A program made the position numbers and the translations under genes. DNA of 14,757 bases from IMG/VR virus record IMGVR_UViG_2657245439_000009; one strand, written 5' to 3'. This stretch comes from a virus. Lineage: Duplodnaviria; Heunggongvirae; Uroviricota; Caudoviricetes. Shown piece by piece: positions 1,994 to 6,566 of this stretch (the first letter of the stretch is position 1; each line of letters begins with the position of its first letter). The notes under the pieces are model-generated. The model searched no databases and had not been told where the DNA came from. It was given only the letters and a program-made list of their open reading frames with translations.

Positions 1994-4393
1994 TCAGCTG
2001 ATACTGATCCCTGCCGTGGATTTTTTCATGACCACAACCAGTAAATCACTGATGTACGTTGTCGGCGTCCAGTTGTTCGCACCGGCCGACGACACATTAA
2101 ACGTCAGGGTGACATGACCCCGCCCTGCCGGCATATCTATCACCGATGAGAACACCCGGCTGACATCCGTTGCCGGTTCATGGAAAATCTCAACCCCGTT
2201 CTTCAGCACCTGTAGCTTACAGGTGGAATACCAGTACGACTGCTGGGCGGGTTTTGCTGGCGCGTTAATCCGGAAGGTGGTGGTGGCCGGTTCGCCCTGC
2301 TGGCCATAACTGTTAATTGCCCTGACTGTCAGGGTGTATTCCCCGAGCGGCAGACCACTGAAACGATGCTCTGTATCCGCAGTGATGGCGGTGGTCACCA
2401 GACGGCTGTCTTCTCCGCTTCCGTTGGTCAGGCGCAGACTGAAGCGCACACCCTTCACCACCCGCGGCGTGTCCCATTTCGCCTGTGCCAGATACTGACC
2501 GTCAGCCGCGCTCACCTCCACCGTCAGGTGCTGCACAGCCGGCGGGATGACGCTGTTCAGCGAACCGGACAGTGGCTCAAAGCTGGCCCCGTTATCCACA
2601 ATGGCTTCTTTTTCCGGTACGTGCTGCACCGCCGTGATGGCAAAGGTGCCGTCCGTGTTTTCCCGGATGGAGACACAGCGGAACAGGCGACGACGCAGTG
2701 ACGGCAGGGAGAGTCCCCATACACCGTATGTCTCCACACCATCAGGCAGGGTGCTGACCTGTATCCGGTCCGGCGCGGGGTGTGCAGTGATGGCCACGCT
2801 CACCGGCTTACCGCTGCCGTTAATCAGGTTCACCGTGGCGGCACCTGTCTCCGGCAGGGTCACCTCACGGTCCAGTGTCAGGGTGCGGCTGGCGGCATCG
2901 ATGGACAGGATACGTCCGCCGGTCATGGTCCCGGCATAGTCGTTATCACAGATTTCAATAATGTCACCGGGTGTGTGACGCAGCCCCTGTGACCCGAGCG
3001 TGAAATCCACCGTCTGCGTTTCCAGCAGTCCGGTCTTTATCACCCACAGTCCGGCACGGTGGGCCTGACCGCGACTGGTGCAACCGAACGCATCCATCTT
3101 CAGCAGGTTGCGCCCGTAGCGCAGTATGGCTTCCGGGTCTTCCACCAGTTCCGTGGAGGTCTGCCAGCCGTTCTGCGGGTCGGTGTAATTCACCTCCACC
3201 GCCGTGTGGCGGTCCTTCAGGGCACTGAAGCTGTAGCGGAACCCCACGCCGTTATCATCCACCACCACATCACTGTTGGTGTACGGCCACACCACATCCG
3301 ACGGGCGGTCCTGAACGAACGTCAGCGTCTGGCCGTTCCATACCGGCATACAGCGCATCGCCGAGCAGAAATCACTGAGAACGTCCCACGCCTTACGCTG
3401 TTGTGACAGGTACGCATTAAAGGTCATCCGCGGCTCTGTGCCCCCGAAACCATCCGGCACCGTCTGGTCGCAGTACTGCCCGATGGCATACAGCGCCCAT
3501 TTGTCCACGTCTGCCGCCACCAGACGTTTTCCCATGCCGTAGCGCGGGTGAGTCAGCATGTCCCACAGGCACCAGGCCGGGTTGTTGCTGTATGCCGGTT
3601 TCAGGCTGCCGTCCCAGATGCCGCTGTACGTGCGTTTTTCCGGGTCATAGTTTGACGGTACCTGGATGATGCGACCGCGGATATGGTAGTTCACCGTCAT
3701 CTGCTGACCGCCAAACTGCTCCGCATCCACCTGCAGCCCCACAATCGCCGTGTTCGGGTAGCACTGTTTCACATCGATGATTTCGGTGTATGACGACCAG
3801 AGCGTCTTATTCTGCAGCTGGTCCGAGGTGCTGTCCGCTGTCTCCCGGACCATCCGGATGTTAAAGGGCCGCTCAGGCAGATTCTCCAGAATCACCGACG
3901 CCAGGTACTGTGAGGTGGTCTTGCCGTTAATGGTGACATCCTTTTCCGTCACCCAGTTACCGTTACGCTGCAACTGAATCAGCAGTCGGACAGAAGAGGG
4001 ATTACGGTCGCCCTTTGAGGTGGTCTCCAACAGTGACTGCACCCCGAAGGTGACCCGCAGGCGGTCAATGTTCGCGGATGTAATGGTGCGCGTTACCGGC
4101 TTTGCCTTCGTCACTTCCACGCCCAGTCCGGTTTCAGCTCCGGAGGACTCAAAGCCTTCCGGTGGTGTCTGCTCCTGCTCCCCGGCGCGCCAGACCGCGG
4201 TCACACCGTGTATCACAGGATTGCCGTCCGTGTCCGTCAGCGGGGTTTTGTTCACCAGGATACTCTGCAGCCCCTTCACCGGGCCTTCTATCGGTCCCTC
4301 ACCAATCGCATCAATCACACTCATCATCTGCGTGGATTTGAGATTATCCTTCGCCTCTCGAGGCGTGTGCGCCCTGCCGCCACCTTTGCCCAT
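1994..4393 (-). CDS. J: Tail tip / host specificity protein J (central tail fiber), unusually short at 799 aa
   Basis: ATG at 4393 with GAGAGGA RBS. N-terminus [22 protein letters not shown]... and the long following region track lambda gpJ. C-terminus (..[15 protein letters not shown]...) resembles the extreme C-terminus of lambda gpJ. Length is well short of lambda gpJ (about 1130 aa, from memory). Confidence 0.9.
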
Positions 4394-4526
4394 AATGTTC
4401 CTCTCAATTGGTATTATTAATCGCAGTGATAGGATATTGCACAGCTATTGCGCGATATCATCAGAACGCTGTTTGTTACCCTGTAACCAGCAAGCTCAGT
4501 CTGTTAACGGAATTAATGAGGGTTTT

Positions 4527-5054
4527 ATGAAATGTAAAATCATTGCTGCCATTGCCATGCTGACAGCAGCATCATGCGGATACGCAGCAGAACAGGAAGT
4601 CCCAATGAACCTTGTCAGTGCTGACGGAAAAGAAGTCAGCATTGGAAAAATAACCATTCAGGAGACCCCCTACGGTCTGCTGTTCACACCAGCCCTTCAC
4701 TCTCTGTCTGAAGGCATTCATGGTTTTCATGTGCACGAAAAAGGAAATTGCGCCCCGGCACTGAAAGACGGAAAACCGGTCGCAGCATTATCGGCTGGCG
4801 GTCACTTTGACCCGAAAAACACCGGCAAACATCTTGGCCCCTGGTCTCCGGATGGACACCTGGGCGACCTCCCTGCGCTGTTCGTGACGCATGACGGAAA
4901 AGCGAACTACCCGGTCCTGGCCCCGAGACTGAACTCATTAAAAGAGATTAAAGGGCGTTCTCTCATGCTTCATGCTGGCGGTGATAACCATCATGACCAT
5001 CCGGAGCCCCTGGGCGGTGGTGGTGCGAGAATGGCCTGCGGCATCATTCAATAA
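4527..5054 (+). CDS. sodC: Periplasmic Cu,Zn superoxide dismutase (prophage moron)
   Basis: ATG at 4527 with GAGGG upstream; 175 aa. N-terminal signal peptide ([20 protein letters not shown]). Cu/Zn SOD signature segments are visible: [64 protein letters not shown]. Opposite strand to all flanking phage genes. The longer ORF 4020-5054 in the track is an upstream extension antisense to J and is not credible. Confidence 0.9.
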
Positions 5055-5060
5055 TCAGTC

Positions 5061-5090
5061 AGGTAAGGGGCGGGCCCCTTACCTTTATTC
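5061..5090 (+). terminator. Rho-independent terminator of sodC
   Basis: Perfect 10-bp stem aggtaagggg / ccccttacct with loop cggg, followed by tttatt, starting 7 nt after the sodC stop. No T-run on the minus-strand side, so it is unidirectional. Confidence 0.7.
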
Positions 5091-5201
5091 CTCAGGACGA
5101 TAAATCCTTTCTCCCTGAAAAGAACGGCACATCCTCCCTCTCTGAGTTAATGTTTTTGTCGTGACATAAGAATAATTCCTTACACTCAATCTTCGTAACG
5201 C

Positions 5202-5239
5202 TCCCGCAGTTCCTGTCCGTGAGCACTGCGGGATTTTTT
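5202..5239 (+). terminator. Second plus-strand terminator-like hairpin followed by T6
   Basis: Stem tcccgcagt / actgcggga (5202-5210 and 5225-5233) with a 14-nt loop, followed by tttttt (5234-5239). Abuts the stop codon of I (5245-5247) from the other side. The transcript it would terminate is not identified. Confidence 0.45.
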
Positions 5240-5244
5240 CGCTT

Positions 5245-5925
5245 TTATGCCTGCCGCCCGATAACCACGACCTTTCCGCCCCCGCCTTCATCACGGGTAC
5301 TGATGTCCTGGGATATACGGCGGGAGCCAACCAGCATTTCACCGTAAGGCACCGGCATCGGGTTCCCCTGGGCAATCATGTTATCCAGCGAGGAAAAGTA
5401 CGTGTTCTGTCTGCCGTTATCCGTGCTTTTGTACTCCGGTACTTTAGCCTTCGGGGCCAGCATCTGAGCCACACCACCCAGAATCATGCTGGCCCCCAGT
5501 GAAAACAGCATCGTGGTGGCAGAAAAACCACCGGCTGCCAGGGCTGAACCCCATAACGCCATTGATGCCCCGGCAGTGAAGAAAGAGCCCACGATGGCTG
5601 CCGCCCCCAGCACAATCTGCAGTCCACCCTTTCCGGCCCCGGCCAGTCGCGGCACAATGTGGATGACCGTTCCCTCACCCAGCTGTTCGTGAAGACGGGC
5701 GTACACCGCCTCCGGTGCCGTGTCCTCACCGCGAATACGTATCTGGTACCAGCCTTCGTTCATCTGACGGCGGAATCCCGGCATCTGCATCGACAGGGCA
5801 CGGATGGCTTCCGCTGCCGTGTTCACATACAGGCTGAGGCGGCGGCCAAATCGTTGTAAATCCCCGTGAAGGCAGATACGTGCCAGTGGCGGTGACGCCA
5901 GGCTGAATGCGTTCGTCGTTGCCAT
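5245..5925 (-). CDS. I: Tail assembly protein I
   Basis: 226 codons. MATTNAFSLASPPLARICLHGDLQRFGRR... plus a hydrophobic Gly/Ala-rich C-terminal half, matching lambda gpI organisation and size. Start overlaps the 3' end of K in another frame, as in lambda. Confidence 0.9.
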   Translation of the reverse strand: MATTNAFSLASPPLARICLHGDLQRFGRRLSLYVNTAAEAIRALSMQMPGFRRQMNEGWYQIRIRGEDTAPEAVYARLHEQLGEGTVIHIVPRLAGAGKGGLQIVLGAAAIVGSFFTAGASMALWGSALAAGGFSATTMLFSLGASMILGGVAQMLAPKAKVPEYKSTDNGRQNTYFSSLDNMIAQGNPMPVPYGEMLVGSRRISQDISTRDEGGGGKVVVIGRQA

Positions 5926-6566
5926 TTTTCGGAATACCTCTCCCGTTTACTCAGTTGTTCAGGCAGATGGTGAAGCAGTTCACCGTTGCCGCAGTAAATG
6001 GCGGCATGATTGGCCACCGATGCGCCAAAGCAGCACAGCAGGATATCGCCCGCCTGTGCAGAGGACAGGGGCACCCGGTAAAAGCCGGTGACCGCCATAT
6101 TGTCCAGGTAAAGGTTCTGACCGTTGCGCCACCAGTCATCCTCACGCTCAAAATCCGGCATATCAATTCCCGCCAGATGGTAGGCATCCCGGAACAGCGT
6201 GTAACAGTCCGTCACCCCGTGCTCAAAGCGCCGTCCTGTCAGATGTGGCACGCAGCGGAATTTATGAATTTCCCCCCGGCAGACCAGCCACCAGGACAGT
6301 GCACTTTTTATCTGCAGCCGCCGGTCGGCCTCGCTCAGCCAGGGCAGACCACCGGGATGACTGTGGACCAGTGCCACAATCTCCCCCTGCATCTCTGCCC
6401 GCAGCCAGTCTTCCGGTGCAATACGAAAATACGCCTCCGGCTCTGCAGAGATATTCACACAAGGGATATACCGCTCCCCCTCCGGCGTTCTCACCACGAA
6501 GCCGCACGACTCCGCAGGCACACACCGCCGGGCATGCGCCAGAATCGCTGATTCTGTCTGTGTCAT
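5823..6566 (-). CDS. K: Tail tip assembly protein K (MPN/JAMM plus NlpC/P60-like domains)
   Basis: JAMM motif HSHPGGLPWLSEAD (HxH-x7-S-x2-D) and NlpC/P60-like Cys/His (..GVTDCYTLF.., ..NHAAIY..). The longest ORF starts at ATG 6566 immediately after the L stop with no strong SD; the true start could be an internal Met. Confidence 0.85.
   Translation of the reverse strand: MTQTESAILAHARRCVPAESCGFVVRTPEGERYIPCVNISAEPEAYFRIAPEDWLRAEMQGEIVALVHSHPGGLPWLSEADRRLQIKSALSWWLVCRGEIHKFRCVPHLTGRRFEHGVTDCYTLFRDAYHLAGIDMPDFEREDDWWRNGQNLYLDNMAVTGFYRVPLSSAQAGDILLCCFGASVANHAAIYCGNGELLHHLPEQLSKRERYSEKWQRRTHSAWRHRHWHVSAFTGIYNDLAAASACM

Follow-up and report, generated by a model that had tools for sequence, protein, structure and literature searches.

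The I–J interval in the tail operon of a prophage probably holds the sodC-F cassette of Escherichia coli O157:H7

We analysed a 14,757-nt stretch of DNA from a tailed virus of the class Caudoviricetes (IMG/VR record IMGVR_UViG_2657245439_000009; hereafter, the window), concentrating on the interval between its tail genes I and J, which contains an oppositely oriented gene, sodC, for a periplasmic Cu,Zn superoxide dismutase (SOD). This interval very probably (we put the probability at about 0.93) contains a self-contained lysogenic-conversion cassette, or moron, of ∼745 nt, namely the prophage sodC-F of Escherichia coli O157:H7. A moron, in the sense of Hendrix and colleagues, is an extra gene among conserved late genes, with its own terminator, an atypical composition and a pattern of presence and absence in relatives. 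The cassette shares with lambdoid morons the position as an extra gene, the own terminator, the atypical composition and the variable presence, and nothing essential differs. The identity and intactness of the gene, its catalytic residues and the boundaries, composition, terminators and distribution of the cassette were established in the present analysis; the activity of the 299-bp promoter fragment, its independence of RpoS, the stable dimeric state of the enzyme, its partial lipidation and the protection against peroxide come from published work on the identical sequence.

Gene J starts at position 4393 and gene I stops at position 5245, both on the minus strand, so that, according to the table of open reading frames (ORFs) and the sequence itself, the gap between them (4394–5244) measures 851 nt. 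The equivalent gap is 60 nt in phage lambda (I ends at 15444 and J starts at 15505) and 239 nt in the sodC-less relatives of the window. An original prediction, made from the letters of the window alone, had contrasted a gap of about 850 nt with tens of nucleotides in lambda, and this holds. The segment had also been described as more AT-rich than the flanking tail genes, in good agreement with the measured composition: GC content is 49.6% in the gap versus 58.7% in both 1-kb flanks and 56.7% in the whole window, and the gap is nearly the lowest-GC stretch of 851 nt in these 14.7 kb (0.16th percentile). Similarly, GC content at third codon positions is 0.51 in sodC versus 0.65–0.73 in J, I, K, L and H.

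Phage JLK-2012, which has no sodC, is homologous to the window up to exactly the start codon of J (4393) and again from position 5139 onwards. Between these two points lies the sodC cassette, or moron proper (4394–5138, plus strand; 745 nt), in which sodC and terminator 1 are preceded by a regulatory region and followed by a 54-nt tail; JLK-2012 possesses an unrelated 132-nt filler in its place. The I-proximal spacer that makes up the rest of the gap (5139–5244, assigned to neither strand; 106 nt, including terminator 2) is phage backbone and ∼97% identical in JLK-2012. The moron had at first been equated with all of 4394–5244; positions 4394–5138 can be retained, and the last 106 nt have to be returned to the backbone. 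The gene sodC is missing from JLK-2012 and from ∼149 of the 151 related phage records, and two records carry it. The filler of JLK-2012 (L003, 3195–3326, the counterpart of 4394–5138) itself contains, on the tail-gene strand, a hairpin, CAGGCACC-tcac-CGGGTGCCTG, and then TTGTTTTTG; this terminator-like site has sense orientation and separates I from J in a Q-antiterminated late operon.

The region 4228–5244, which covers the 745-nt cassette, the 299 bp located 5' of the sodC ATG and the 106-nt spacer, is 100% identical to the corresponding sequence of E. coli O157:H7 EDL933. The latter genome carries two copies of the cassette, of which the identical one lies between the same genes and encodes WP_000649829.1. 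The EDL933 genes, sodC-F1 and sodC-F2, belong to prophages CP-933R and CP-933V (D'Orazio et al. 2008, PMC2569942). SodC-F1/F2 of EDL933 and SodC of the window agree in the cassette, the upstream 299 bp, the protein, the I–J location and the orientation, and only the surrounding tail genes differ: I is 93.8% and the 5' kb of J 95.7% identical, and J of the window is internally deleted. The identical protein is encoded at the same position in two Stx2a-converting phages. Among 5426 complete E. coli genomes, the cassette is present in 569 and the I–sodC–J junction in 545, with at least 99% identity of the cassette in 542 records. That the window carries the same kind of cargo as the sodC-bearing prophages of O157 was thus correctly anticipated, down to nucleotide identity with one of the EDL933 copies. 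Equally justified was the view that the gene is accessory but not novel, since it has already been characterised (PMC2569942).

The published study of the O157 gene (PMC2569942) found that the 299-bp upstream fragment drove lacZ in an RpoS-independent manner, that sodC-F is expressed in logarithmic phase and under anaerobiosis, and that chromosomally tagged SodC-F is detected in O157. The enzyme is a dimer that surpasses chromosomal SodC in activity, stability and resistance to proteases (for SodC-F1, 19380 U/mg and ∼30.6 kDa by gel filtration). It is exported and partitions between a soluble, periplasmic and a membrane- or lipid-associated form via an AASC lipobox, and sodC-F mutants are more sensitive to hydrogen peroxide (PMC2569942). 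Chromosomal SodC of strain K-12, on the other hand, is monomeric, RpoS-dependent, specific to stationary phase and fully soluble (PMC2569942).

In the window, the sodC coding sequence (4527–5054, plus strand) comprises 175 codons and a stop, and its product is a periplasmic Cu,Zn-SOD equal to WP_000649829.1, the product of EDL933 sodC-F. As had been expected of a Cu,Zn-SOD gene lying opposite to the tail operon between I and J, the 175-aa product of the plus strand matches Sod_Cu (PF00080) with E=3.9e-32 and 111.9 bits (cut-off 28.9), covering profile positions 3–133 of 133, and it matches solved bacterial periplasmic Cu,Zn-SODs (including 1z9n, 2wwn, 1eqw and 1eso) at E ∼1e-62. In an alignment of seven homologues (SodC of the window, Salmonella SodCI and SodCIII, E. 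coli K-12 SodC and three mobile copies), residues H68, H70, H93, H102, H111, D114, H149 and R168 and the pair Cys75/Cys171 are invariant. We take H68, H70 and H149, together with the bridging H93, to be the copper ligands, and the bridging H93 with H102, H111 and D114 to be the zinc ligands; R168 is presumably the catalytic arginine and C75/C171 the intrasubunit disulfide. Judged by its translation, the sodC ORF is intact and every catalytic residue is retained.

The original prediction of a ribosome-binding site and a signal peptide for sodC also proved sound. The Shine-Dalgarno (SD) sequence GAGGG (4518–4522, plus strand) is located 4 nt 5' of the ATG and is kept in copies of the cassette found on plasmids and in a genomic island. 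The N-terminus reads as a basic start, a hydrophobic core and an A-x-A-like site, and the signal peptide (aa 1–20; 4527–4586, plus strand) is predicted to be cleaved by signal peptidase I after A20, leaving a mature protein that starts with AEQ. An alternative lipobox, AASC (aa 14–17; 4566–4577, plus strand), is predicted to yield a protein lipidated at Cys17. According to the alignment, this cysteine is kept in the mobile copies and in SodCI, and is missing from K-12 SodC and from SodCIII of the Salmonella prophage Fels-1.

The state of the gene bears on the question of whether sodC might be a silent passenger or a decaying remnant, devoid of a promoter of its own and giving rise to a product by read-through or not at all. 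Such a state would be compatible with the lack of a consensus sigma70 promoter and with the seemingly defective condition of a prophage whose J gene has suffered an internal deletion (both are described below). However, the ORF and all of its catalytic residues have been kept, the cassette is nearly invariant in the 542 E. coli records, the identical 299-bp fragment is active, and the tagged protein is detected in O157 (PMC2569942). Moreover, the plus strand upstream of sodC is non-coding, holding only the antisense of J, lom and a tail fibre gene, and copies outside phages persist together with the upstream region. A silent or decaying sodC is consequently very improbable, and we favour the interpretation of the gap as a self-contained conversion cassette.

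The closest positional parallel to this cassette is found in the Salmonella prophage Fels-1, in which sodCIII (STM0924), a gene of similar size, occupies the same slot between I and J and likewise runs antisense. The sequence immediately 5' of J, including the SD of J, is likewise similar in Fels-1 and in the window. SodCIII is 60.5% identical to SodC of the window at the protein level, but lacks the Cys17 lipobox; the upstream region of its gene is different and the downstream spacer far shorter than in the window. The sodCI gene of Gifsy-2 (STM1044), which had been put forward as a parallel, does resemble the sodC of the window in being a prophage Cu,Zn-SOD gene, antisense to the tail operon, with a cysteine in the signal peptide; yet it lies in another slot, between L and a lom-like gene next to M, its product is 58.8% identical, and the better parallel in terms of position is Fels-1 sodCIII. 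The expression pattern and enzyme properties of sodCI and SodC-F are similar (PMC2569942).

SodC of E. coli K-12 (b1646; PDB 1eso) belongs to the same family, has the same fold and the same catalytic residues and is 60% identical to SodC of the window. In a scan of GTDB species-representative genomes with the SodC protein, from which 80 loci were listed, the best matches were to SodC of Serratia, Pseudomonas and Leminorella (62–69% identity over the aligned segment); among the matches listed there was no closer relative and no prophage copy from E. coli. Since K-12 SodC, at 60% identity, is no closer than the proteins of these three genera, SodC of the window probably did not arise by recent copying of the host gene.

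Comparison with EDL933 (L091) provides some indication of how the cassette moves. Positions 4224–5340 form a 1117-nt block with zero differences between the two sequences, bordered by 4–6% divergence on both sides, and the block spans the cassette together with 170 nt of J and 96 nt of I. This appears to be the usual mosaic signature of lambdoid phages, with a module that would be exchanged by recombination within the ends of the flanking tail genes. Outside any tail operon, the cassette was also identified in diverged form: on plasmid p2017.06.05CC_1 (L088, 3850–4822; 79% identical), on plasmid pSCU-111-2 (L089, 3966–4647; 81% identical) and on the chromosome of MS1685 (L090, 4001–4573; 77% identical), beside a dptFGH phosphorothioation-restriction genomic island. 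Both plasmid copies adjoin insertion sequence elements. The upstream region has been retained in the plasmid and island copies and the terminator in two of the three. The copy on p2017.06.05CC_1 additionally retains 146 nt of the 5' end of J and, further downstream, ∼50 nt resembling the I-proximal filler of the JLK type (local score of 27 versus 10.7 ± 1.7 for shuffled sequences), and was therefore captured from a phage tail region.

On the downstream side of sodC, the plus strand folds into a hairpin at 5061–5084, with a 10-bp stem including 6 GC pairs, a 4-nt loop and a free energy of −17.9 kcal/mol, followed by UUUAUUCCU; the whole of terminator 1 (5061–5092, plus strand) consists of this stem and loop and then UUUAUUCC. 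The hairpin is kept in two diverged copies of the cassette through two compensatory changes from G-C to A-U, with 100% of the cells paired, and this pattern, in three sequences, lends modest support to the predicted structure. The original prediction of a strong intrinsic terminator is accordingly right in that the cassette has a hairpin of its own, but the word strong was somewhat generous, because the U-tract is interrupted. Terminator 2 (5202–5239, plus strand), which belongs to the backbone, is more canonical: its 9-bp stem, UCCCGCAGU/ACUGCGGGA (5202–5233), is followed by UUUUUU and is situated directly before the stop codon of I. Its sequence is identical in JLK-2012, and it opposes the direction of the tail operon even in phages without sodC. 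On the strand of the late transcript both hairpins fold as well (−18.5 and −18.6 kcal/mol) but are without a U-tract, and therefore should not terminate that transcript.

The promoter of sodC has been placed by the literature somewhere within 4228–4526, the 299 bp 5' of the ATG, and candidate motifs for it can be proposed. The original prediction had pointed to a weak TTGGTA..TAGGAT pair and had otherwise found no convincing sigma70 promoter. The pair does exist (4408–4435, plus strand: TTGGTA at 4408, a 16-nt spacer ending in TGa, i.e. an extended −10, and TAGGAT at 4430–4435; 8/12 consensus matches), but its −10 is not conserved, reading TAGTCA or TAGCCG in the copies that are 77–81% identical. 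The alternative candidate is TATCAT (4456–4461, plus strand), a −10-like hexamer with 5/6 matches that every one of the four diverged copies retains, although no −35 is recognisable for it. Footprinting of the promoter across E. coli is uninformative because of the at least 99% identity of the 542 records.

Several points thus weigh against the self-contained cassette. No sigma70 site with at least 9 of 12 consensus matches is present in 4100–5500, as the original prediction had sensed, so that the position of the promoter was not found; the two weak candidates contradict one another; and the U-tract of terminator 1 is interrupted. In addition, the part of the EDL933 Cappable-seq study (PMC10469882) accessible to us contains no start site for sodC-F and mentions just the chromosomal sodC, and several of the regulatory results in PMC2569942 are given there as 'data not shown'. 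As for the defining properties of a moron, variable presence and atypical composition were both found, an own terminator was found at the level of consensus, and for an own promoter there are just 8/12 candidates and no consensus sigma70 site, along with the reported activity of the identical 299-bp fragment (PMC2569942).

A different mode of control would be regulation of the cassette by PhoPQ, as in Gifsy-2 sodCI, with positions 4470–4486 acting as a PhoP box. The strings tgtttg-N5-ctgtaa that had suggested this arrangement in the first place are found exactly at 4470–4486 (plus strand), and the first half-site (TGTTTG) matches at 5/6 positions. Salmonella sodCI is reported to be under positive control by PhoPQ (cited in PMC5678156), and SodC-F is relatively enriched in intracellular bacteria (PMC2569942). 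The second half-site, however, matches at only 2/6 positions, which brings the total to 5 mismatches relative to KGTTTA-N5-KGTTTA. Even sites with up to 3 mismatches occur in the window at chance level (20 found versus 16.5 ± 4.2 expected), and none of these falls within 4394–4509. The repeat is poorly conserved in the 77–81% identical copies, no usable −10 is present at the expected distance downstream, and the sequences upstream of sodCI and sodCIII show no clear homology to that of the window. The mismatches, the chance-level background and the poor conservation argue against a PhoP box at 4470–4486, and the PhoPQ regulation of Gifsy-2 sodCI is not transferable to the sodC of the window on sequence grounds. 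We consider PhoPQ control of the cassette quite unlikely, and retain a conversion cassette with a promoter somewhere in the 299-bp region.

When these observations are combined, a broader picture can be sketched, in which the cassette would be an actively exchanged recombination module that has repeatedly escaped, along with a piece of J, to plasmids and islands, and that is expressed from an unconventional, activator-dependent promoter (TATCAT without a −35). We offer this combination tentatively and regard it as rather doubtful as a whole. If true, it would be a small addition to what is known of the spread and control of prophage cargo, and would not represent a new kind of system.

The left edge of the cassette may matter for the phage itself. 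As read from the sequence and the alignment, the cassette begins with 17 nt that hold the SD region of J (GAGAGGAACATT-ATG; 4394–4410, minus strand). Fels-1 has a similar sequence at this place, and JLK-2012, which lacks sodC, has a different one. Since this SD lies inside the cassette edge, the cassette would provide the ribosome-binding site of J. One could go further and suppose that the main beneficiary of the cassette is the phage: the edge and hairpins of the cassette would tune translation or processing of the late tail transcript between I and J, with SOD activity being secondary. The location of the SD of J, whose sequence differs from that in the sodC-less relatives, and the two stable hairpins on the strand of the late transcript could be read in this way. 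Against it, the function of SodC is conserved and experimentally documented, the relatives without a cassette have an SD of their own for J and make tails, and on plasmids the cassette survives while the J remnant and its SD have decayed. A primarily phage-serving role is, in our judgement, extremely improbable compared with that of a conversion cassette carried for sodC.

The genes around the cassette are those of a tail operon. On the left, J (1994–4393, minus strand; 799 aa) is the gene for the tail tip and host specificity, with a series of GpJ domains in Pfam, and on its far side there is an Ail/Lom gene. On the right, I (5245–5925, minus strand), a tail assembly gene, matches the Pfam family Lambda_tail_I with E=6.4e-16; the version of I annotated by the Prokaryotic Genome Annotation Pipeline in L001, the closest complete genome, is shorter (582 nt). 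Beyond I, Pfam matches identify K (JAB plus NlpC/P60), L, M and the tape-measure gene H. A scan of the window against Rfam gave no match at the gathering threshold. A candidate STnc400 RNA at 5018–5094 (23 bits versus a threshold of 80, E=0.14) was rejected as a chance hit, and STnc400 was also absent at the gathering threshold from the sodC loci of Gifsy-2 and Fels-1 and from two further sodC loci scanned. Small ORFs (20–44 aa) within 4394–4526 and 5055–5244 are all without support; the 44-aa ORF at 5092–5226 straddles the boundary between cassette and backbone, and its conservation is therefore impossible.

J of the window is just 799 aa long because of an in-frame deletion of 1077 nt at 2245|2246, without microhomology, relative to the 1158-aa J of the closest genomes, including L001. 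The deletion removes aa 717–1075, and with them Ig_J_second, Phage_Tail_Tip and ∼40 aa from the start of the receptor-binding domain. The 2245|2246 junction occurs in none of the 5426 complete E. coli genomes, and the best matches to the whole window are all split by an additional 1078 nt. Unless the deletion is an artefact of assembly, the prophage is probably defective in adsorption. In the same prophage of L001 (E. coli Z1323HEC0067), type III effector genes lie beyond the tail fibre genes, at L001 positions 3043–6200, just past what corresponds to the left end of the window: nleB2 and nleF are intact, and the annotation gives a partial nleC and a frameshifted nleH as pseudogenes. Thus sodC shares its prophage with other virulence cargo.

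Taken together with the published properties of the identical gene, the anatomy of the cassette is consistent with the following course of events. In a lysogen, the late tail operon would be silent, and sodC would be transcribed in the opposite direction from a promoter within the 299 bp 5' of its ATG. The hairpin of the cassette would stop this transcription, with the backbone terminator 2 as a backup, so that no antisense transcript would run into I, K and L; the two terminators may in this manner act as insulators. SodC would then be exported via its signal peptide and either released into the periplasm, after cleavage behind Ala20, or lipidated at Cys17 of the AASC motif. With copper and zinc bound, the enzyme would remove superoxide from the envelope and thereby protect the host from exogenous oxidative stress.

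In Salmonella and enterohaemorrhagic E. coli, periplasmic Cu,Zn-SODs encoded by prophages are an accepted form of fitness or virulence cargo. With the window, the exact O157 sodC-F cassette gains a further carrier, and its textbook moron anatomy is confirmed; given that anatomy and the exact copy of a characterised gene, the element is already known. Its analysis makes modest additions to this picture: the edges of the insert, which is of 745 and not 851 nt; a ribosome-binding site for J that would be provided by the cassette edge; tandem terminators that may shield I from antisense transcription; and an apparent modular movement of the cassette between tail operons and onto plasmids.

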